Of a stretch of DNA of 64,000 nucleotides, positions 1-14,991 are shown one piece after another. The notes under the pieces were generated by a model. It saw nothing but the letters and a program-made list of their open reading frames with translations, searched no databases and was not told the origin of the DNA. The stretch spans positions 34,437-98,436 of the forward strand of contig JAWCDE010000002.1 in NCBI GenBank assembly GCA_038861395.1. Reading direction: 5' to 3'. Position numbers and translations under genes: made by a program. The stretch comes from Thermoproteota archaeon. GTDB taxonomy: Archaea; Thermoproteota; EX4484-205; JAAOZP01. Every line of letters begins with the position of its first letter. Position 1 is the stretch's first letter.

Positions 1-430
1 TAAGCTTAACCTTCCATTCGGGAAACTTTTTCTTCAATATCTCTTCCACTTCCTTAACTGGGGCCGAGCCCTTGTGGGAAATTATAGTTGAAATGACAAC
101 GGCCAATCCAGCGATCTCATCTATCGACCAACCCAGGGTTTTCACGGCAGTCAGGCTTAGCTCATCCTTAAGCGTAACGTAAAACCTTGCTGTTGAGAGC
201 TTGCTTTCATCATCGCTCATGCTGAGCTCGCTTCCATCATCCGAAACAATCTTTATTGTTAATCCCAGTTCTTGGAAACGTGTGTTAAGAAACTTGATTA
301 TTGAAAGGTAACCTGGTCCAAGGTTTTTCTTAAGCTCCCATCCTTTAACTCCAGGAGTCCTATGGCTTTTAAACAATAAGAGCTGCACTGCCCGCGCAAC
401 TTTGCTCCTTATTCTTTCCCCCTGCTCCAA
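1..430 (-). CDS. ScpB-like winged-helix (kite-type) protein, partial (3' end beyond window edge)
   Basis: Not in the ORF track (no ATG, open to position 1). My minus-strand translation from TTG 430 (alt GTG 388) reads LEQGERIRSKVARAVQLLLFKSHRTPGVKGWELKKNLGPGYLSIIKFLNTRFQELGLTIKIVSDDG... The AVQLLLFKS..P pattern and the following L...F/Y...GL.I segment parallel the canonical ScpB at 14431 (VEAALFASGRPL...LIEEYRLRDTSLEIVE). It starts 12 nt after the stop of the kleisin-like gene, in the same frame. Confidence 0.45.
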   Translation of the reverse strand, partial: MEQGERIRSKVARAVQLLLFKSHRTPGVKGWELKKNLGPGYLSIIKFLNTRFQELGLTIKIVSDDGSELSMSDDESKLSTARFYVTLKDELSLTAVKTLGWSIDEIAGLAVVISTIISHKGSAPVKEVEEILKKKFPEWKVKL

Positions 431-442
431 GGCACCCGCCCC

Positions 443-1159
443 TTATATTGGTAGGGCTACGGAATGCTTTTCCACGTCTTTTGGAGTCGTCTTGAAAACC
501 CAGACCTTGTTGGTTAAGGGGTCTTGCATAACTCCTACTAAGCCCTTAGTCATGAGGAAGCTTAAGGCTAATGCTCTGAATACTTTCCTCTTCTCCCCTT
601 CCCCACTTATCAAAATATAATAGTCAACTGGATCCTGGCCCATCTCGTTTAAAATTTTCTCCATCTCGCTTTCGAAATCGGTTTCCTCCATTTTTAGAAG
701 CTCATTGAGCATGTTAATGGCACTAGGCATCGGGATTTCTCCCACCTCGGGCAACAAGTATTCTCTCAGACTAGCCCAGTAGCCATAGGCTGTTCGCATC
801 ACATTCATAGTGGCTTGCTCATTTTCAGCAACCGGTCTGAATGCTTTTAGGAAAGCCCCTGCAAGCCTCTGGCTATCAAGCCCCATGAGCCGTATTTCCA
901 TAAGGAAGGGGTCGAGATAGAGTCTGCTAGCCCTCTTCTTAACATCCTCCTGTTGGAGTAATATTATGTAGATTAATTTCAGCAGAGCAGCCATATTCAT
1001 CACCAGGGTTCTCTCATCCATTTCAAGCAGGCCTTCTCTAAGTCTCCTAAGGTTCTCTTTGACGTCTACGATAAAAGGGTCAATATTTTTCTCAATAACC
1101 TCATCGCAAAGACGAATTATTCTCTCGATCAACTCAACGTATTTGCTGATCGGCGGCAT
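443..1159 (-). CDS. kleisin (ScpA-like) protein, paralog of canonical ScpA
   Basis: 238 aa. The N-terminal helical segment NIDPFIVDVKENLRRL...LVMNMAALLKLIYIILLQ resembles the ScpA N-domain. The C-terminal KRKVFRALALSFLMTKGLVGVMQDPLTNKVWVF matches the kleisin C-terminal winged-helix pattern. It lies directly downstream of an SMC-like ATPase gene. Confidence 0.6.
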   Translation of the reverse strand: MPPISKYVELIERIIRLCDEVIEKNIDPFIVDVKENLRRLREGLLEMDERTLVMNMAALLKLIYIILLQQEDVKKRASRLYLDPFLMEIRLMGLDSQRLAGAFLKAFRPVAENEQATMNVMRTAYGYWASLREYLLPEVGEIPMPSAINMLNELLKMEETDFESEMEKILNEMGQDPVDYYILISGEGEKRKVFRALALSFLMTKGLVGVMQDPLTNKVWVFKTTPKDVEKHSVALPI

Positions 1160-1265
1160 TCAATTCAATCCCTCTAGCCGTGTAACCTGGGTTAATGGAA
1201 TAAATATAAACATAACCTTCAGAAGAGAACTTTATTCCCACTGTTTATAATGAAAAGCCTTATCT

Positions 1266-3047
1266 CTAGCTCTGTTCAACCTCAAGTACTCTCGACTCGT
1301 CTTGAACTTTTTGAACAACTATTATGTGCGCATCTTCGACAGGAGGAGGTGTTCCAGGTGTTATGCATAAGTATGCTACTCCAGGATTCTCTCTAACAAC
1401 TTCAGAGAGTATTTGGAAGAACTTTTTTCTCATGAGCGGGTCCATGTGCACATCTAACTCATCGATCCCCCTGATGCTTGATTTGACTAGTGACTGAAGG
1501 GCCATTAAGAAGGACACTACTGTTGCACTTCTCTCGCCACCGCTCTGAGTGTAGACGTTGAACTCCGTTAAAGGACCTCCCCCGAAGCTTACGAATATCA
1601 CGAGGCCAGCGTTATCAACATCTTCCATATTCACTAAACGTAAGTCACCGGTCCCACCCATGGTTTCCATATTCTTCTTAAAACTCTCGTTGATCTTTTC
1701 AACAACAGCCATCATCTTTCTCCTCCATATCTCCATTCTCTCTTTAAGCTCGTCTTCAGCAGCCATTCTGTTTTCAACGACAACTTTAACCTTCTGCTCA
1801 AGGTCACTATACACCTTAAGGTAATTTTTGTAAAACTCTTCCGCATTCTCTGAAACCGTGCCGAGAGAGGCTATTTGAATAATGCAGTCGTTAATCTTCT
1901 TCTCTATTACATCCGGTGGATCGACTTCTTTTGGCGGCTCGCCTTCAAGCTGACCCTTAACCTCGTTAATCTTCGATTCAATAGATCTTTCCTTCTCCTG
2001 AAGGCGGTGACGTTCAGCCTCCAGCTCTCTCAACCTATACTTTATTACCTCAGCCCTAACATTCAACTTCACGTACTTCCTTATCAACTTGGTTATCTCC
2101 TCGTCGAGCTTACTATACTCGTCGATGAGCCCTTCAACATCAGCCTTGCCTTCCGAGGCTTTGAAGAAAATCCCCTTCAGCTTCATCCTAGCCTTATTAA
2201 GGCTGTTCCAAACTTTCTCAGCCTTCTCGACGTTTCTCGAAGCAATTTTATTGCCTCTGTCAATCCTCTCCTCAATTTTGGAGATCCTCTCCCGGATCCT
2301 CAGTTTCTCGCCGTTAAGCTGGTTGAAAACACTCCACTTAAGAAGCCTGTTTAACTCAGCATGGAGCATCTGCAGCTCTCTTCTCTTAACAAGCTTCTCA
2401 TATTCTGCTCTCCACATCTCAAGGGTCTCACGGGCTTCGTTTAAAAGAGCCTCCACAGCCTTCTCTTCGCTTACGATCTTGCTTAATCTCTCTCTCGAAG
2501 CCTTTATATTATCCCTTAAGCCCGAAAGCCCGATAGCGCCCTCCACTAGCTTAAGCTTCTCAGAAGGGTCTAGTGATGCGAACTCCTCAATCATGTACTG
2601 ATGCATTATTATGAGCATGTTTGAAGGGTCTATTCCGAAAAGTGAAAGTATCTCGTCAACCTCCATCTTCGTAGCAGGATTGTAATTTATCTGGCTCCAA
2701 TATTCTCCGTCTCTCCTTAAATACCTAGTTATAACGAGCTCGTCGGATCTTACGAAGGACACTGGCCTCTTACCGTCAATCCCTGGAGAGTTATCGAATA
2801 TCAGTGTAACTCTAGCAATATCCTCGCCAATCCTTATCAGATCGCTCAGTTTCTCAGCCCTGCCACTGCGCGACTGGCCGAGGCCGACTGAAATCCCCCA
2901 GAGAATCGAAGATTTTCCGGAGCCATTAGGGCCAAGAATAAGATTAAGTCCGGGGCGAATGGTAATCTTACTATAACGATAACTCATGAAGTTCTCTAAA
3001 ATCACCTCTTTCAATCGAAGCCTTTTTTGTTGTTCTACTGTTTCCAC
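1266..3047 (-). CDS. short SMC/Rad50-superfamily ATPase (593 aa) with coiled-coil insert, no hinge or zinc hook seen
   Basis: N-terminal Walker A LILGPNGSGKSSILWG. C-terminal ABC signature QSGGERSATVVSFLMAL and Walker B SSIRGIDELDVHMD. About 300 aa of K/E/L/R-rich heptad-like sequence lies between the head halves. There is no CxxC hook and no globular hinge-like stretch. Confidence 0.75.
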   Translation of the reverse strand: METVEQQKRLRLKEVILENFMSYRYSKITIRPGLNLILGPNGSGKSSILWGISVGLGQSRSGRAEKLSDLIRIGEDIARVTLIFDNSPGIDGKRPVSFVRSDELVITRYLRRDGEYWSQINYNPATKMEVDEILSLFGIDPSNMLIIMHQYMIEEFASLDPSEKLKLVEGAIGLSGLRDNIKASRERLSKIVSEEKAVEALLNEARETLEMWRAEYEKLVKRRELQMLHAELNRLLKWSVFNQLNGEKLRIRERISKIEERIDRGNKIASRNVEKAEKVWNSLNKARMKLKGIFFKASEGKADVEGLIDEYSKLDEEITKLIRKYVKLNVRAEVIKYRLRELEAERHRLQEKERSIESKINEVKGQLEGEPPKEVDPPDVIEKKINDCIIQIASLGTVSENAEEFYKNYLKVYSDLEQKVKVVVENRMAAEDELKERMEIWRRKMMAVVEKINESFKKNMETMGGTGDLRLVNMEDVDNAGLVIFVSFGGGPLTEFNVYTQSGGERSATVVSFLMALQSLVKSSIRGIDELDVHMDPLMRKKFFQILSEVVRENPGVAYLCITPGTPPPVEDAHIIVVQKVQDESRVLEVEQS

Positions 3048-3124
3048 CGATGTCTGGTTTCTTTAGGCTTAGATAAGGATTTTCGCCGACGGAAAATGGT
3101 TAAAAGCTGATTATAAGGCTTAAT

Positions 3125-3829
3125 GTGTGGATGGTTACTGCAGGCAAGATATTCAGGCTCGACGAATACTTGTCTCAAAACGAGCTTGCTCAGAGGCTTA
3201 AGGGGTATAGGGTTGAAACCCCGCTGGAAGGAACTGATTTAACGCTCGTTTCCGAGGTTACTGGCCTTAGGGCCTCTCAAAACATGCTGGAAGGGGTTTT
3301 GAGCAGGGATATTCCTGTAACTTTGAGAAGAAGGGATAAGACGGAAATCGCTATTAAGACCGTTGACTCCGTCTTCAGCTTTGTTTTCCGGAAGAAGAGA
3401 GTTTTCCTCATAGTGTTAGAGAAGAAGCCTGTTGCAAACATGGTTGCCAATATGTTCAGCCAGATAATATTTCTTAAAAGCGGGAAGATAGTTGAGGCAA
3501 GAATCTCCCCGAAGGTTATGCTAGACTACCATAATGCTAATAGTGATGCTGCTAAAGTTGTTTTCTTCGACAATGTTGACATACCTAACATAGAGAAACT
3601 ATCCTTGTACGGGCCTTCGCTAGCGAACACTAGCCTGTTCGCAGAGTATTTGAAGCATGGGGATATATGGTATGTAGTGATTTCCCATCGTAAATCAGGC
3701 TATGTTGCCGGAATCACTAGAGACGGCGTGGTAACTATTTTCAGCAAGGTCGATCCAGCTTCATTCATAAATTTCTCCATTGAGGAGATTATTCCGCTTA
3801 TTGAAGAATCCGAGTCCTCTAAGACGTAG
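3125..3829 (+). CDS. hypothetical protein (234 aa), divergent from the SMC-like operon
   Basis: Long ORF with no competing ORF and no motif I recognise. It shares a 77-bp intergenic region with the SMC-like gene. Confidence 0.5.
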   Translation: MWMVTAGKIFRLDEYLSQNELAQRLKGYRVETPLEGTDLTLVSEVTGLRASQNMLEGVLSRDIPVTLRRRDKTEIAIKTVDSVFSFVFRKKRVFLIVLEKKPVANMVANMFSQIIFLKSGKIVEARISPKVMLDYHNANSDAAKVVFFDNVDIPNIEKLSLYGPSLANTSLFAEYLKHGDIWYVVISHRKSGYVAGITRDGVVTIFSKVDPASFINFSIEEIIPLIEESESSKT

Positions 3830-9883: not shown

Positions 9884-12800
9884 TTGTATCTCACCAAGAT
9901 TGAGATTAGGAATTTCAAATCTATAGGAGACCGGCAAGTAATAAACCTGAGCAAAGGGCTGACGGTACTGACGGGTAGAAACGGCTCAGGCAAGTGTGTT
10001 GCACCGTGGATGCCCGTGGCCCAGCCTTGGGGAGGTAGACCTATAGAATCTCTTTTCCATGATGCCTGCTCCGACGGCATAAGGATTAGTGAAGAGACTT
10101 CTGAGTACGTGATTCCCCCTCGGAAAGTGATGCTATTAAGTTACCATGGACGCCTAAACAAGTGTTTAGAAACCAGTGTTAGTACTTTTTTCAGAAAGCC
10201 TTACGACGGCTGGTTAGTGAAACTGGTAACGTTATCAGGTAGGATCGTCGAAGTTACTCCAGAGCATAGAGTAGCAGTAGCTTTTAGCACCGGTTTTAAA
10301 TGGGTTGAAGCATCGCTTCTAACGCCGGATAGTAAAATAATGGTTTTTGAAAACGGGGAGATTAGGATTGATGTCTTAGACAAGGTTGTTAAGAAGCGTT
10401 GGGCAGGCATGGTTTACGATCTCTACGTAAGAAACGTTGGGTCATACATTATTGGAGACGGAGTAATAGTTCATAATAGTAATCTAGTTGACGCAATACG
10501 TTTCGCATTAGGAGAGAATAGCCCTAAGCTACTCAGAACTGATAGGCTTTCCTCCTTGGTCAATGATAACGCTGGGAAAGATGCAGAAGCATATGTGAAA
10601 GTAACCATAGATAACAGCGACTCCGTAATCCCCGGCCAAGATAAGATCATTACTGTAGCGAGAAGAATGGGACGTGACGGGGAGAGCACATACTATATCA
10701 ATGGCAGAAGAGCCCCTAGGAATGTTATTGAAGACATAATCTCTACAGCAGGTCTTTCAGCCAGAGGTTATAATATAATTCTTCAAGGAGAAATATCAAG
10801 ACTTGCAGATAAGAATCCGGTGGAGAGGAGAAGGGAGGTTGAGCAGGCGCTTGGCCTAGCCCAGTACGATGAGAAAAAGATGGAGGCCCTTAACAACCTG
10901 CAGCAAGCAGACAATAATCTTAGGGTTGCACAGGCCAGGCTCCAAGAAATAGATAGGAGGATGCTCCAGTTAGAAAGGGAGAGGAACCTCCTTTTGAGAA
11001 GACGGATGCTTGAGAAGGAGATTGAAAAAGTACAGCTTATAATAGATTCTCTCGAGTACTGGAGGCTCATAAATAAGCTTAACGATGTTTCTAAAAGAAT
11101 TGAAGAAAACAATGCTTTAAAAAACAAGCTTGAAACCGAGCTCTCTGCAATACAATCTGAAAGAAAGAAACTTATGGAAAGAACTGAAGAGTTACTGAAG
11201 GCGGCTCCGGCAATCGGCGATTCTGAGAAGATTAGGCTAGAGTACGAGCTTAAAGATTGTGAAAGACAGCTCAACGAATGTTTGAAAAAGACAGAGGAAG
11301 AAAATCTGGAATTAAACACTATTAAAAAAGAACTAGGGAAAGTTAAGAAGAAGAAAAGCAGGATGCAGGGAAAGATTAAACGATTACTAAAAGTTGCAAG
11401 CAGGATGTCGACAAAATATTCTTCCCTCAACAATCTACTCTCTAGGCTCTCAGAAGAAAAGAAGAGAATGCAAGAAATTGAGAGGAGAAGGGTGGAAGAA
11501 GCTTATCAGATCAGAAGCCAATTAGCCATGGTTGAGAAAGAGTTGGAGAAGACACTTGTAGAAGAAAAGAATGCTGAAAGGATGCTAAAAGATATCCTCA
11601 TTCACTATAATAGTGTTAGAAGGAAAATGAGTAGCCTGAATAGGATGAAAAACAGAGAGAGCGCTAGGAGGATCAGATTAATAGAAAAACTGGATGACCT
11701 TGAAAAATCATTGGCGGAGAGAAGAAAAACACTTGACAACACTATTGAAATGCTTAAAGTCCTTACCGAAAGCATGGACGTGTTCAGAATATTCTTCGCG
11801 AAGGCCTCTGGTGCTTTAAGCTATAGGAATAGGAAAGATAAGGGGAGAATGCTAGAGCTTATGAGAAGAATCTTAGAAGAGAAGGGTTTAAGAGTCTATG
11901 GAATTTTAAGGGAAAATCTCTGGTTCCCTGAGGATGTTAAAAAGGCTGTTGAAAGCCTAGCCGGAGAGTGGATGGACTCCGTTCTAGTTGGGAATTCGCT
12001 AGACATGCTTGTGTTAACGAAACTGTTCAGCGGAGAAACTGCTGGCATAAGAGTATTAACGCCTGAAGGAGAAATCTCAAAAAAGGAAGTGCCCCCTAAG
12101 TTTAATGGACGAGGCACCCACCTAATGGATTTGCTTAAGTATCCTAAGGTTATTGAGAAACATGTTTTAAAAATATTCTGGAATAGTGTTTTGGCAAACA
12201 GTGTTGAAGATGCTTTAGCTTTTGTGAAGAACGGTTTTAAAGCAGTAACTCGAGACGGGCAGGTTTTCACAAACGAAGGCGCGTTAATACCAGATGATAG
12301 TGATAAGGAATTTGAAAACATCCTGAAGTTTATGAAAACCTTCACTGGGAAGGTTGGAGAATTGTCTAAGATGATTGAAACAGTAGAGATGCGCATAAAA
12401 CATTCTTTAAGCAGGAAGATTGTGGAGACAACAGAGTTTCGAAACAAGCTTGAAGGCGAGTTGAATGCTATCGACGCATATATGAGTAGGCTGGAGGAAC
12501 AATTGAATATTCTAGCTAATGAATACTTATCGGCCTCTAGGAAACTTAGCCAAGTTTTTAGAGAACGGAATACTGGCAAAAAGCGTTTGCTTGAAAAAGA
12601 GTTGCAAAGACTAAGGTCTTCGATAACTTTGAAAGAAAAGGAGTTGAGGAATATCCGGAAGAAGATAAGCCTGCTTGAAGAAAATATGGAGAAATTAGAT
12701 AATGAAAAAATGCGAGTTAGAAGAAGCTTAATAGAGATTGAGAACATTGTTAATACACTGCGTAGGAGAATCGAGGAGTGTAGGAATGTTGAGGGAGCAT

Positions 12801-13792
12801 TAGCAAGTAGGATTTTTGCGATTAGGAATGAAATGAGAAGCTCCATAGTTTTAGCAAACGGTCTTAGGAATAAAATAGAATTCTTAAAGGCGGAGATAGG
12901 GGAGGAGGTTGGAGTAGAATACGTGGAGAGTAGGGATAAGAGAAGTGAGCTTGTCGAAGCAATACGTAGACTGGATGAAGAAGCTGAGAGATTAAATTCA
13001 GAGATTAATAGGGTTAAAGACGTTGAGAGGAGGCTTCTAGTAGAGAAAGAAGTTAATGAAAGCAAGGTAGAAGAGCTGAGAAACAGAATTCTGGATCAAC
13101 CACTACGGGTGCCAGAGGAAACTAGAGATTCTGCGGAGAGGTACTTAAGCATTCTTAAGAGCGAGCTTGAAAAAGTCCAGGAAGTAAACATGCTCGCTAT
13201 TAAGCAGTATGAACAGGAGATCGATTTTTATAGGAATGCTTTAGAAAGAATTAACGAGCTGGAGGAAGAGAGGAGAAGCATTCAAGAGTTTATGGAGGAA
13301 ATTGAAAGAAAGAAGAGAGAAGCTTTTCTAGAGGGTTTGAGCAAAATAAACAGTTATTTCTCAACGTTTTTCAACAAGATGACCGGCGGAGAAGGCTGGC
13401 TTCAACCCGAGGACCCTGATAATCCTCTAGAAACAGGTTTGAACGTCTACGTTAAGTTCCCGGGAAAGGAGGCTAGAGTAATAAGTGGAGTAAGCGGGGG
13501 GGAGAAGTCAGTTGCAGCACTCTGCCTAATCTTTGCGATGCAGAAACTTTTCCCGGCAGCATTCTACATTTTCGACGAGCCAGATGCGCATTTAGATTAC
13601 GTCAACATCGATAAGATGACTGACCTCCTTAAGGAAGTCTCTAAGGAGAGTCAGATCATAGTAATATCACTCAGGGATGTTGTCGTCAGCAAGGCGGATA
13701 AGGTTATAGGAGTATACGTTAAGAAGGGATCGTCAAGATTCATGGAGATGCCGGGCGAGAAGGCTCTGGAGGAGATAGCTGTTGCCGGATGA
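9884..13792 (+). CDS. smc: chromosome segregation ATPase SMC, intein-containing precursor (1302 aa; 1141 aa extein)
   Basis: TTG start, MYLTKIEIRNFKSIG. Walker A is split as GRNGSGK / intein / SNLVDAIRFALGE. Long coiled coils and a hinge-like middle segment are present. C-terminal signature SGVSGGEKSVAALCLIFA and Walker B FYIFDEPDAHLD. scpA and scpB follow. Confidence 0.92.
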   Translation: MYLTKIEIRNFKSIGDRQVINLSKGLTVLTGRNGSGKCVAPWMPVAQPWGGRPIESLFHDACSDGIRISEETSEYVIPPRKVMLLSYHGRLNKCLETSVSTFFRKPYDGWLVKLVTLSGRIVEVTPEHRVAVAFSTGFKWVEASLLTPDSKIMVFENGEIRIDVLDKVVKKRWAGMVYDLYVRNVGSYIIGDGVIVHNSNLVDAIRFALGENSPKLLRTDRLSSLVNDNAGKDAEAYVKVTIDNSDSVIPGQDKIITVARRMGRDGESTYYINGRRAPRNVIEDIISTAGLSARGYNIILQGEISRLADKNPVERRREVEQALGLAQYDEKKMEALNNLQQADNNLRVAQARLQEIDRRMLQLERERNLLLRRRMLEKEIEKVQLIIDSLEYWRLINKLNDVSKRIEENNALKNKLETELSAIQSERKKLMERTEELLKAAPAIGDSEKIRLEYELKDCERQLNECLKKTEEENLELNTIKKELGKVKKKKSRMQGKIKRLLKVASRMSTKYSSLNNLLSRLSEEKKRMQEIERRRVEEAYQIRSQLAMVEKELEKTLVEEKNAERMLKDILIHYNSVRRKMSSLNRMKNRESARRIRLIEKLDDLEKSLAERRKTLDNTIEMLKVLTESMDVFRIFFAKASGALSYRNRKDKGRMLELMRRILEEKGLRVYGILRENLWFPEDVKKAVESLAGEWMDSVLVGNSLDMLVLTKLFSGETAGIRVLTPEGEISKKEVPPKFNGRGTHLMDLLKYPKVIEKHVLKIFWNSVLANSVEDALAFVKNGFKAVTRDGQVFTNEGALIPDDSDKEFENILKFMKTFTGKVGELSKMIETVEMRIKHSLSRKIVETTEFRNKLEGELNAIDAYMSRLEEQLNILANEYLSASRKLSQVFRERNTGKKRLLEKELQRLRSSITLKEKELRNIRKKISLLEENMEKLDNEKMRVRRSLIEIENIVNTLRRRIEECRNVEGALASRIFAIRNEMRSSIVLANGLRNKIEFLKAEIGEEVGVEYVESRDKRSELVEAIRRLDEEAERLNSEINRVKDVERRLLVEKEVNESKVEELRNRILDQPLRVPEETRDSAERYLSILKSELEKVQEVNMLAIKQYEQEIDFYRNALERINELEEERRSIQEFMEEIERKKREAFLEGLSKINSYFSTFFNKMTGGEGWLQPEDPDNPLETGLNVYVKFPGKEARVISGVSGGEKSVAALCLIFAMQKLFPAAFYIFDEPDAHLDYVNIDKMTDLLKEVSKESQIIVISLRDVVVSKADKVIGVYVKKGSSRFMEMPGEKALEEIAVAG
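9995..10477 (+). other. mini-intein (161 aa) in the SMC Walker A loop
   Basis: It begins with Cys (TGT 9995) directly after GSGK. Block B is EVTPEHRV, block F-like is VYDLYVRNVGSYIIGDG, and it ends VIVHN (AAT 10475-10477). The +1 residue is Ser of SNLVDAI. No homing-endonuclease-sized insert is present. Confidence 0.85.
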
Positions 13793-14456
13793 AGCTCAGG
13801 AAGCATCTGAAGTAATATTCGACTTAATAAGGCTCAGGAGAGTTAATCCATGGGATATTAAAATATCAAGTGTCTTGAAGCAGTTATCTAAGGAGCTTCG
13901 TGAAAAAGGCTATATGCAATTCACCCTTTCAGGACTACTATTATTAGCGTCTTCCGTAATCTACCTGAGGAAGACAGAGACCCTTCTACATATCGAGCCC
14001 GAGGAGGAGGAAGATTTTGGGGGGGTCGAGGAAGTTCCGGACGTTTCCTTAGAAGCGCTTGATAAAATAAGCCCTTCAAATATTCCCCTTAGACCTTCGC
14101 AGCCCGTTATAGATCTTGAGCAACTGGTTAAAGCACTCCTTCGCATAGTGGAGAAAGAATACTCTAAGAAGCCTGTTGAAGAAGAGCCTTTGCCACCAAT
14201 AGTCCCCCAGCAAGACGAGTTCATGAGAAACATCGAGAAAATGGTCGAGGAGTTTAAGAAGAGCCTTTTCGAGCAGATAGTTAGCCAAGGCAGGGTTCCT
14301 TTGAGAAGCCTGCTTGAAGGAAAACAGCCCCTTGAAGTAGCTAGAACATTCATACTTATACTCTTCGTACTGTCTGAGCCCGGTTTCGATGTTGTTTTCG
14401 AAAACGATGAATGCTACATAGTGACAGAGGATGGTTTCGAAGGAATCGGAGTATAA
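13782..14456 (+). CDS. scpA: segregation and condensation protein A (kleisin)
   Basis: Overlaps the smc stop by 11 nt. N-terminus FDLIRLRRVNPWDIKISSVLKQL...LLLLASSVIYLRK, then an acidic linker. The C-terminal WH is PLEVARTFILILFVLSEPGFDVVFE. Confidence 0.85.
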   Translation: MPDEAQEASEVIFDLIRLRRVNPWDIKISSVLKQLSKELREKGYMQFTLSGLLLLASSVIYLRKTETLLHIEPEEEEDFGGVEEVPDVSLEALDKISPSNIPLRPSQPVIDLEQLVKALLRIVEKEYSKKPVEEEPLPPIVPQQDEFMRNIEKMVEEFKKSLFEQIVSQGRVPLRSLLEGKQPLEVARTFILILFVLSEPGFDVVFENDECYIVTEDGFEGIGV

Positions 14457-14991
14457 AAAGAGGGTTGAGGCAGCACTGTTCGCGTCGGGCAGACCATTGA
14501 ACCTTTTACAACTCAAGTCTGCAGCAGGAGTTAGAAAGGTTGAGAAGGTTGAGAAAGCATTGAGAGAGTTGATTGAAGAATATAGGTTGAGAGATACAAG
14601 TCTTGAAATAGTTGAGATAGGCCGTGAAAACTACATGCTTAGAGTAAAGCCCGAGTATGTTAACTGCGTTAAAAAGCTGGGGGTAAAGCCTATGATCAGC
14701 AGAGCTGGTTTGAAAACTCTGACTCTGATAGGTTTAAAACAGCCGATTGCCCAGTCTAAGATTGTTGCCTTAAGGGGGACGCATGCTTACAAGCAGATCC
14801 GGAAGCTGGTTGAAATGGGGCTTGTCGAAGCAGGCAGGAGTGGAAGAAGCAGGCTACTAAGCCTTACTCCCACTGGTTTAAGCATTTTCGGTGCGCGTAA
14901 TGATGAGGAGCTTAAACAAGCCTTAAGAAGCCGCTTGCAACCAGTGCCTTCTCATGAGCAGAATAGGGAGAATACAGGACAGGTTGAGTAG
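14431..14991 (+). CDS. scpB: segregation and condensation protein B
   Basis: VEAALFASGRPLNLLQLKS and tandem WH pattern. It is the third gene of the smc operon. Confidence 0.85.
   Translation: MVSKESEYKKRVEAALFASGRPLNLLQLKSAAGVRKVEKVEKALRELIEEYRLRDTSLEIVEIGRENYMLRVKPEYVNCVKKLGVKPMISRAGLKTLTLIGLKQPIAQSKIVALRGTHAYKQIRKLVEMGLVEAGRSGRSRLLSLTPTGLSIFGARNDEELKQALRSRLQPVPSHEQNRENTGQVE

Follow-up and report, generated by a model that had tools for sequence, protein, structure and literature searches.

SMC5/6-related members of the archaeal SMC (aSMC) proteins were defined by Yoshinaga and Inagaki in 2021. As described in the available text, they comprise 80 sequences, 66 of which come from TACK archaea, with Bathyarchaeota, Thaumarchaeota, Verstraetearchaeota, Crenarchaeota, and Korarchaeota among the carriers, and they occur together with canonical SMC in 44 cases (PMC8665677). 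Proteins of 500 to 1500 amino acids (aa) were accepted in that study, according to the same text, and coiled-coil columns were removed before the trees were built (PMC8665677). In the available text of their preprint, van Hooff et al. describe TACK and Asgard archaea with two SMC complexes encoded in separate operons, one related to condensin/cohesin with a ScpB-like kite, and the other SMC5/6-related, in which the kleisin is akin to Nse4 and the kite resembles Nse1/3, with kleisin and kite genes as neighbours in 31/31 cases examined (bioRxiv 10.1101/2024.01.07.573240). Their Table S3 includes many TACK genomes with a kleisin and a kite but no SMC5/6-related SMC, and they caution that SMC and kleisin counts are under-represented owing to sequence downsampling (bioRxiv 10.1101/2024.01.07.573240). 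Here, we analysed a stretch of 64,000 nucleotides (the window) from a Thermoproteota archaeon (assembly GCA_038861395.1, contig JAWCDE010000002.1, positions 34,437 to 98,436), the first 3 kb of which carries three co-directional genes (the small set) for an SMC-head ATPase, a kleisin, and a kite.

The locus agrees with the published description on every testable point and is therefore a member of this already described type of archaeal SMC5/6-related complex. The original prediction, made from the letters of the window, had missed this identity, which was already in the literature. We consider it about 80% probable that the trio is an archaeal SMC5/6-related complex, a second SMC complex beside Smc-ScpAB, that acts as a compact ATP-gated clamp, most likely in chromosome maintenance. 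The three protein identities, the missing hinge, the conservation of the operon, and its housekeeping context are supported directly. To our knowledge, experimental studies of an archaeal SMC5/6-related complex have yet to be reported.

Results

A short ATPase with an SMC-type head and no hinge

The 593-aa ATPase carries a Walker A motif (GPNGSGKSS), an SMC-type signature (QSGGERS), and a Walker B/D-loop motif (IDELDVHMD). Its N-terminal and C-terminal head halves (approximately residues 1 to 175 and 436 to 593) are separated by an arm region (approximately residues 176 to 435) that contains a proline-rich break at residues 367 to 379. The arm region spans approximately 260 aa, close to the 300 aa of coiled coil estimated originally, and the residues E, K, R, Q, L, and A make up a fraction of 0.56 of it versus 0.35 to 0.38 in the heads. 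In Pfam, the protein matched SMC_N (E = 1.9e-28), while SMC_hinge was absent both from the ATPase and from all of its 120 best homologues, which are 460 to 680 aa long. The protein contains only two cysteines, at positions 388 and 561, and thus lacks a CxxC hook. The SMC-type head without hinge or hook that had been predicted is therefore what these searches found.

The best NCBIfam models for the ATPase were two prokaryotic SMC equivalogs, one being TIGR02169 at 190 bits (cutoff, 729) and the other scoring 164 bits (cutoff, 567), and the models for Rad50, RecF, RecN, ASRP, and arcadin-4 gave at most 63 bits, far under their cutoffs. When the full-length ATPase was searched against PDB sequences with phmmer, SMC5 ranked first (E = 6.8e-27), before Pyrococcus Smc and SMC6. 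In order to take out coiled-coil similarity, head-only family profiles were built. The C-terminal head profile scored 116 bits against human SMC5 and 98 bits against yeast Smc5, followed by SMC6 (68 bits), archaeal Smc (60 bits), and SMC1/3 (approximately 40 bits), and the N-terminal head profile scored SMC2, SMC5, and SMC6 alike at approximately 85 bits, with archaeal Smc at 68 bits and Rad50 at 46 bits. Alignment of the ATPase with SMC5 showed the QSGGERS signature, an MDP.N D-loop motif after Walker B, and an "ITP" H-loop region in common. These data suggest that the ATPase head resembles eukaryotic SMC5/6 more closely than it does the canonical Smc of archaea or bacteria.

When 119 family members were aligned, conservation was lowest at the apex of the arm, at approximately residue 303, which is also the sole site of large insertions; the extra length of the 640- to 680-aa homologues consists of heptad-like sequence at the apex alone. 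Because SMC_hinge is missing and length variation is confined to the apex, the family appears to be hinge-less and short-armed throughout, with predicted arms of roughly 125 to 170 residues per strand. In the ATPase of the window, the arms have approximately 125 residues per strand, equivalent to approximately 18 nm, and end in a poorly conserved loop with neither a hinge nor a zinc hook.

A kleisin of Nse4 type and a kite of Nse1/Nse3 type

The two partner proteins were identified solely through a deep alignment (A3) and structure models. Single-sequence searches of the 238-aa protein against Pfam, NCBIfam, PADLOC, and the PDB gave no match, nor did a PDB profile search with a shallow kleisin alignment (A2). 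An exhaustive profile search collected 166 representative relatives of 230 to 280 aa, from which A3 was built, and the A3 profile matched human EID3/NSE4 (E = 5.5e-7) and yeast Nse4 (E = 2e-6 to 6e-6), the aligned region being the C-terminal winged helix. Against the N- and C-terminal domains of ScpA, the same profile reached an E value of approximately 0.02 at best. The Pfam family Nse4_C was matched by 32/89 members of the kleisin family (best E = 7e-9). An AlphaFold2 (AF2) model of the protein, with a predicted local distance difference test score (pLDDT) of 84, starts with an N-terminal helical domain that includes one long helix, continues through a disordered, flexible linker (residues 134 to 144), and ends in a C-terminal winged helix (approximately residues 159 to 223). 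The top Foldseek matches of this model were all kleisins, namely Nse4, ScpA's C-terminal winged-helix domain, RAD21, and condensin kleisins, with Nse4 the best at 2e-3; that none reached E ≤ 1e-3 is expected for a flexible multidomain protein. The 238-aa protein, which had been proposed to be a kleisin on its helices and winged helix, is demonstrably a kleisin of the Nse4 type.

The kite gene runs off the left edge of the window, approximately 120 nt of it lying beyond that edge, and its full-length product of 183 aa was taken from identical public contigs (GCA_038863655.1 and others; L001:10730-11281). Searches with the single sequence against Pfam, NCBIfam, PADLOC, and the PDB, and a PDB profile search with the kite family alignment (A1), gave no match. 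The AF2 model (pLDDT, 85.7) consists of two tandem winged-helix domains, and the only four PDB matches of this model at E ≤ 1e-3 in Foldseek were Nse3/MAGE-G1 and Nse1 chains; MukE and ScpB came lower, with ScpB at ranks 34 and 45. Neither BLASTP nor hhalign of the kite family detected similarity to the ScpB encoded in the window, and there was no ScpB match in Pfam. The protein is therefore an Nse1/Nse3-type kite; of the earlier description of this open reading frame as ScpB-like, the winged-helix kite stands and the likeness to ScpB does not. With 183 aa and two winged-helix domains only, the kite showed no RING domain, and the Nse1 RING, the Nse2 SUMO ligase, and the Nse5/6 loader families were unmatched among the neighbouring genes, where the 234-aa neighbour belongs to no recognisable family.

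Conservation and context of the three genes

All three genes lie on the minus strand at the places originally given (Table 1). The kite gene starts 12 nt past the stop of the kleisin gene, and 106 bp separate the ATPase gene from the kleisin gene. Homologue searches returned 1926 matches for the ATPase, with Nitrososphaerales proteins of approximately 640 aa among them, 166 for the kleisin, and 501 for the kite, and with so many conserved homologues each, the three are real genes rather than chance open reading frames. An exact-sequence lookup of the 238-aa protein found identical contigs in three Thermoproteota metagenome-assembled genomes (MAGs), and near-identical proteins carry the database label Candidatus Brockarchaeota. 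On the identical contigs, the end of the kite gene is followed by approximately 120 bp and then by a convergent gene for a 956-aa Lhr helicase. The small set therefore consists of exactly three genes, and no nuclease or other effector was found past the left edge of the window, where the convergent Lhr gene is the next gene on those contigs.

A genome scan with one genome per species found the kite encoded in at least 472 genome stretches. The best 80 of these, from Brockarchaeota, Bathyarchaeia, and Nitrososphaeria, were examined as loci. In 75 of the 80, the kleisin gene directly adjoins the kite gene, and the ATPase gene is immediately upstream of the pair and co-directional with it in 58 of the 66 loci that were informative, that is, had at least 2 kb of upstream sequence. 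Among the organism-labelled matches, kite identity falls from 88% in Brockarchaeota to approximately 47% in Bathyarchaeia. Genes for a NusA-like KH protein and for RNA polymerase subunit A/B lie downstream in convergent orientation in 27 to 28 Bathyarchaeia loci (examples are L027, L028, L032, L036-L038, and L042-L047). The G+C content of the small set equals that of its flanks. The housekeeping neighbours and flank-like G+C content indicate a vertically inherited core system rather than a defence island.

Two further genes recur beside the trio. A convergent Lhr helicase gene is found directly downstream of the kite gene in 25/81 compared loci, from several classes, at a median gap of 102 bp; these loci belong to Brockarchaeota, Nitrososphaeria, and some Bathyarchaeia (including L006-L018, L022, L035, L074, and L082). 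The Lhr linkage may reflect either deep synteny or a functional tie to DNA repair. On the other side, the divergent 234-aa gene and the 77-bp region before it were confirmed at the positions first reported. Homologues of the 234-aa protein are encoded upstream of the ATPase gene and divergent from it in 28/80 loci, a median of 229 bp away (for instance, L016:2686-3390 and L047:2322-3011, both on the minus strand); they are full-length, are 42 to 52% identical across classes, and share 42 invariant columns. No match to the 234-aa protein was found in Pfam (in a search that included 28 homologues), NCBIfam, PADLOC, or a PDB profile search. Its conserved divergent placement beside the ATPase gene indicates that the gene is not a random neighbour, and it could encode a fourth subunit or be a co-regulated gene.

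Features of the window and the canonical Smc-ScpAB set

TABLE 1 Coordinates of the small set, its neighbours, and the canonical SMC genes (window positions unless a contig locus is named)
Feature	Position	Strand	Description
SMC-head ATPase gene	1266..3047	minus	593 aa; GTG start
Nse4-type kleisin gene	443..1159	minus	238 aa
Nse1/Nse3-like kite gene	1..430	minus	TTG start at 430; first 143 codons of the 183-aa product
Intergenic region separating the divergent ATPase and 234-aa genes	3048..3124		77 bp; putative promoter region
234-aa gene, divergent from the ATPase gene	3125..3829	plus	Family unrecognised
Lhr-type helicase gene	L001:11404-14274, just left of the window	minus	~956 aa; DEAD, Helicase_C, WH_Lhr, DEAD_assoc
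Canonical Smc/ScpA/ScpB set	9884..14991	plus	Context; 7 kb from the small set
Smc	9884-13792	plus	1302 aa; SMC_hinge; 161-aa intein; 1141 aa without intein
Mini-intein in Smc	9995-10477	plus	Residues 38-198; 161 aa
ScpA candidate	13782-14456	plus	224 aa
ScpB	14431-14991	plus	TIGR00281, 102.7 (curated cutoff, 89.2)

The canonical set reported in the original prediction was largely recovered: Smc and ScpB were confirmed, and ScpA was recognised by position and weak matches only. The mini-intein of Smc splits the Walker A/P-loop (GRNGSGK | C...VHN | SNLV), running from Cys38 to His-Asn198 and being followed by Ser. It contains no insert of the size of a homing endonuclease and matches the intein models of Pfam and NCBIfam below cutoffs only. 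The ScpA candidate had no significant match in Pfam or NCBIfam; its assignment is based on its position, on a weak N-terminal match to Pfam SMC_ScpA (E = 0.09), and on its similarity in hhalign to the kleisin family of the small set, and the gene presumably encodes a very divergent ScpA. BLASTP of the small-set kleisin against this protein gave no match; hhalign with A3 aligned the two over near full length (E = 1.4e-4), a similarity that is consistent with distant kleisin paralogy.

The small set was also considered as a canonical Smc-ScpAB set. This was rejected because TIGR02169 scored 190 bits (cutoff, 729), no hinge was found, neither ScpA nor ScpB was matched in Pfam, and the hhalign comparison of the kite with ScpB was blank. 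A paralogous SMC-kleisin-kite set distinct from the housekeeping Smc-ScpAB, as proposed initially, is thus upheld.

Discussion

By homology, ATP binding would bring two copies of the 593-aa ATPase together at their heads. A single kleisin of the Nse4 type would bridge the two asymmetrically, its N-terminal helices contacting one ATPase at the neck and its C-terminal winged helix contacting the other at the SMC5-like cap, and the single Nse1/3-like kite would sit as a dimer on the kleisin's middle part. On the analogy of the solved Smc5/6-DNA clamp, the kite/kleisin module would hold DNA atop the engaged heads, with hydrolysis of ATP releasing or resetting the clamp. Arms of approximately 18 nm without a hinge or zinc hook make a compact ATP-gated DNA clamp or tether more likely than a long-range loop extruder. 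The cellular role is most likely chromosome maintenance, in the form of repair or the handling of replication stress, and not defence; this preference comes from the analogy with eukaryotic SMC5/6 and from the recurring Lhr neighbour.

Several points weigh against this reading. The N-terminal head profile shows no preference for SMC5/6 over SMC2, and without a hinge there is no evident means of holding two ATPases together when ATP is absent. In six loci, all from close relatives, the ATPase gene lies approximately 2 kb from the kleisin-kite pair, with 1.8 to 2.1 kb of unrelated open reading frames in between (L007:3452-5277, L008:3161-5273, and also L010-L012 and L014). In five of them it is inverted (L008, L010-L012, and L014). 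Kite identity is 88 to 95% in these closest relatives. Since the ATPase gene and the kleisin-kite pair are separable in this way, they are probably separate transcription units in this lineage. In two loci from Bathyarchaeota MAGs (L026 and L030), no ATPase homologue was found within 5 kb upstream; the gene has either been lost or lies in another part of these genomes. Furthermore, complex formation, stoichiometry, and DNA clamping are argued from homology, and the evidence for a genome-maintenance role is the analogy and the Lhr neighbour. The label "SMC5/6-related" derives from profile scores and the identities of the partner proteins. The published SMC5/6-related clade was compared by its description, and the short proteins are putative members of it.

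The neighbourhood bears on whether the system might instead serve anti-plasmid or anti-virus defence in the manner of Wadjet/MksBEFG or Lamassu, with an SMC-like sensor of foreign DNA that triggers or performs restriction. Lamassu typically has SMC-like ATPases with short arms, eukaryotic SMC5/6 is described in the available text of one report as silencing episomal viral DNA (PMC9458440), and the best PADLOC matches of the ATPase were mad3 (1e-25) and LmuB (1e-22; 79 bits), with a weak match to JetC (31 bits). However, these matches represent generic ABC/SMC-head similarity, and the kleisin and kite have no PADLOC match. For Lamassu, the LmuB score is of that generic kind, the other genes are likewise unmatched in PADLOC, and the neighbouring genes showed no recognisable effector domain. 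For Wadjet/MksBEFG, to which the original prediction had suggested an analogy with a nuclease beyond the left edge, JetA, JetB, and JetD were unmatched, MukE ranked below Nse1/3 in the fold search, the kleisin is of the Nse4 rather than the MukF/JetA type, the kite is of the Nse1/3 type, and the sequence past the edge holds the convergent Lhr gene and no nuclease or effector. The small set behaves as a vertically inherited core set, present in at least 472 genome stretches, with graded kite identity among organism-labelled matches (88% in Brockarchaeota to approximately 47% in Bathyarchaeia), housekeeping neighbours (RNA polymerase, NusA, and Lhr), and the G+C content of its flanks. We therefore regard a defence function as improbable. 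A chromatin or domain organiser resembling coalescin/ASRP or a second condensin, shaping chromosome compartments rather than acting in repair, is slightly easier to accommodate and still unlikely. An SMC-superfamily ATPase is kept beside canonical Smc-ScpAB, the set adjoins the RNA polymerase operon in many Bathyarchaeia, and no result obtained here distinguishes organisation from repair. Yet the ASRP model NF045487 scored 47.6 bits (cutoff, 300), and the apex carries no CxxC zinc hook, which tells against membership in ASRP/coalescin (ClsN, Sph1/2) and against the coalescin/ASRP-like role suggested earlier. ASRP genes also have no consistent flanking gene set across genomes (PMC9389158), hinge-less arms of approximately 18 nm would be poorly suited to long-range bridging or loop extrusion, and all three partners indicate SMC5/6 rather than condensin.

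The remaining explanation, that the ATPase is a Rad50/RecN/RecF-type repair enzyme whose two downstream genes encode unrelated small DNA-binding proteins, is by far the least probable and has largely been refuted already. A short coiled coil as in RecN and the recurrence of the DNA-repair helicase Lhr as a neighbour would suit it. The family models fell far short, at no more than 63 bits for Rad50 (cutoffs, 700 to 1087), 29 bits for RecN (cutoff, 408), and 46 bits for RecF (cutoff, 172); the head profiles rate SMC proteins far over Rad50; there is neither a zinc hook nor an Mre11 neighbour; and the downstream pair, which is tightly co-conserved with the ATPase, encodes a kleisin of the Nse4 type and a kite. 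The profile searches and the survey of gene neighbourhoods called for in the original prediction gave an ATPase of SMC type with kleisin and winged-helix folds in its partners and a trio whose neighbourhood is conserved; none of the contrary outcomes named there (a Rad50/RecN/RecF placement, partners without these folds, or loss of co-conservation) was seen.

These observations leave an archaeal SMC5/6-related complex as the preferred identity, and such complexes bear on how eukaryotes acquired SMC5/6. The locus is a clean, complete example that lies 7 kb from Smc-ScpAB and allows two complexes to be compared in one organism. Searching the literature for an archaeal SMC5/6 without a hinge or with short arms turned up only the two papers on evolution introduced above. 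Their available text and supplements make no mention of a short ATPase length or a missing hinge (PMC8665677; bioRxiv 10.1101/2024.01.07.573240), and neither the conserved 234-aa neighbour nor the Lhr linkage is mentioned in what is available of them (PMC8665677; bioRxiv 10.1101/2024.01.07.573240). Relative to that text, the family-wide hinge-less arms of approximately 18 nm, the divergent neighbour of approximately 230 aa, and the recurrent Lhr appear to be new. If hinge loss and short arms hold across the family, it would offer a machine of SMC, kleisin, and kite that is minimal by nature and of a size that suits structural and single-molecule study of what the head module does by itself, and the conserved 234-aa neighbour and recurrent Lhr are concrete leads to partners and function. 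A broader generalisation is tentative, and we would sooner bet against it than for it: the SMC5/6-type complex of Bathyarchaeia, Nitrososphaeria, Methanomethylicia, and Brockarchaeota may be built on a hinge-less ATPase of approximately 600 aa with arms of approximately 18 nm, a natural mini-SMC that works as a head/kleisin/kite clamp without a hinge-closed ring, perhaps with the approximately 230-aa protein as a fourth subunit and a linkage to Lhr. If this were true, the source lineage of eukaryotic SMC5/6 would have begun as a compact clamp or, in TACK archaea, shrunk to one, and with the mini-SMC one could ask, in a minimal system, which activities of SMC proteins depend on arms and a hinge.

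Comparison with known systems

RecN and the Lamassu protein LmuB resemble the small-set ATPase in that a short, antiparallel coiled coil divides their ABC/SMC-type head. However, RecN has no partners, whereas the small set has partners of the Nse4 and Nse1/3 types, and LmuB works with LmuA/LmuC effectors, whereas the small set has none. JetC of Wadjet differs in working with the MukF/MukE-like JetA/B and the JetD nuclease, where the small set has Nse4- and Nse1/3-type partners and no effector. With canonical Smc-ScpAB, the small set shares the logic of SMC, kleisin, and kite, the gene order, and a weak kleisin profile similarity (the hhalign match at 1.4e-4); it differs in being hinge-less, in an ATPase of half the length, and in a kite without detectable sequence similarity to ScpB.

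Eukaryotic SMC5/6 is approached in all three proteins: the C-terminal head is closest to SMC5, including the MDP.N D-loop and ITP H-loop, the kleisin has an Nse4_C-type winged helix, and the kite has the tandem winged-helix fold of Nse1/Nse3 (MAGE). In contrast to the Smc5/Smc6 heterodimer, a single ATPase gene is present here, presumably giving a homodimer. The eukaryotic proteins carry hinges on long arms, whereas the archaeal ATPase has an arm region of approximately 260 aa, or approximately 125 residues per strand, and no hinge. There is one kite gene without a RING domain, and homologues of Nse2 and Nse5/6 were not recognised.

The archaeal SMC5/6-related complex is the closest of the described systems. 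Its description in the available text makes no mention of an ATPase of approximately 570 to 680 aa without a hinge, as encoded here and in related loci. The likeness extends to the same components in the gene order SMC-kleisin-kite, to a kleisin and a kite that are always neighbours, to occurrence in TACK lineages (Bathyarchaeota, Thaumarchaeota, and Verstraetearchaeota), and to coexistence with canonical Smc/ScpA/ScpB in one genome, as at 9884-14991 here.

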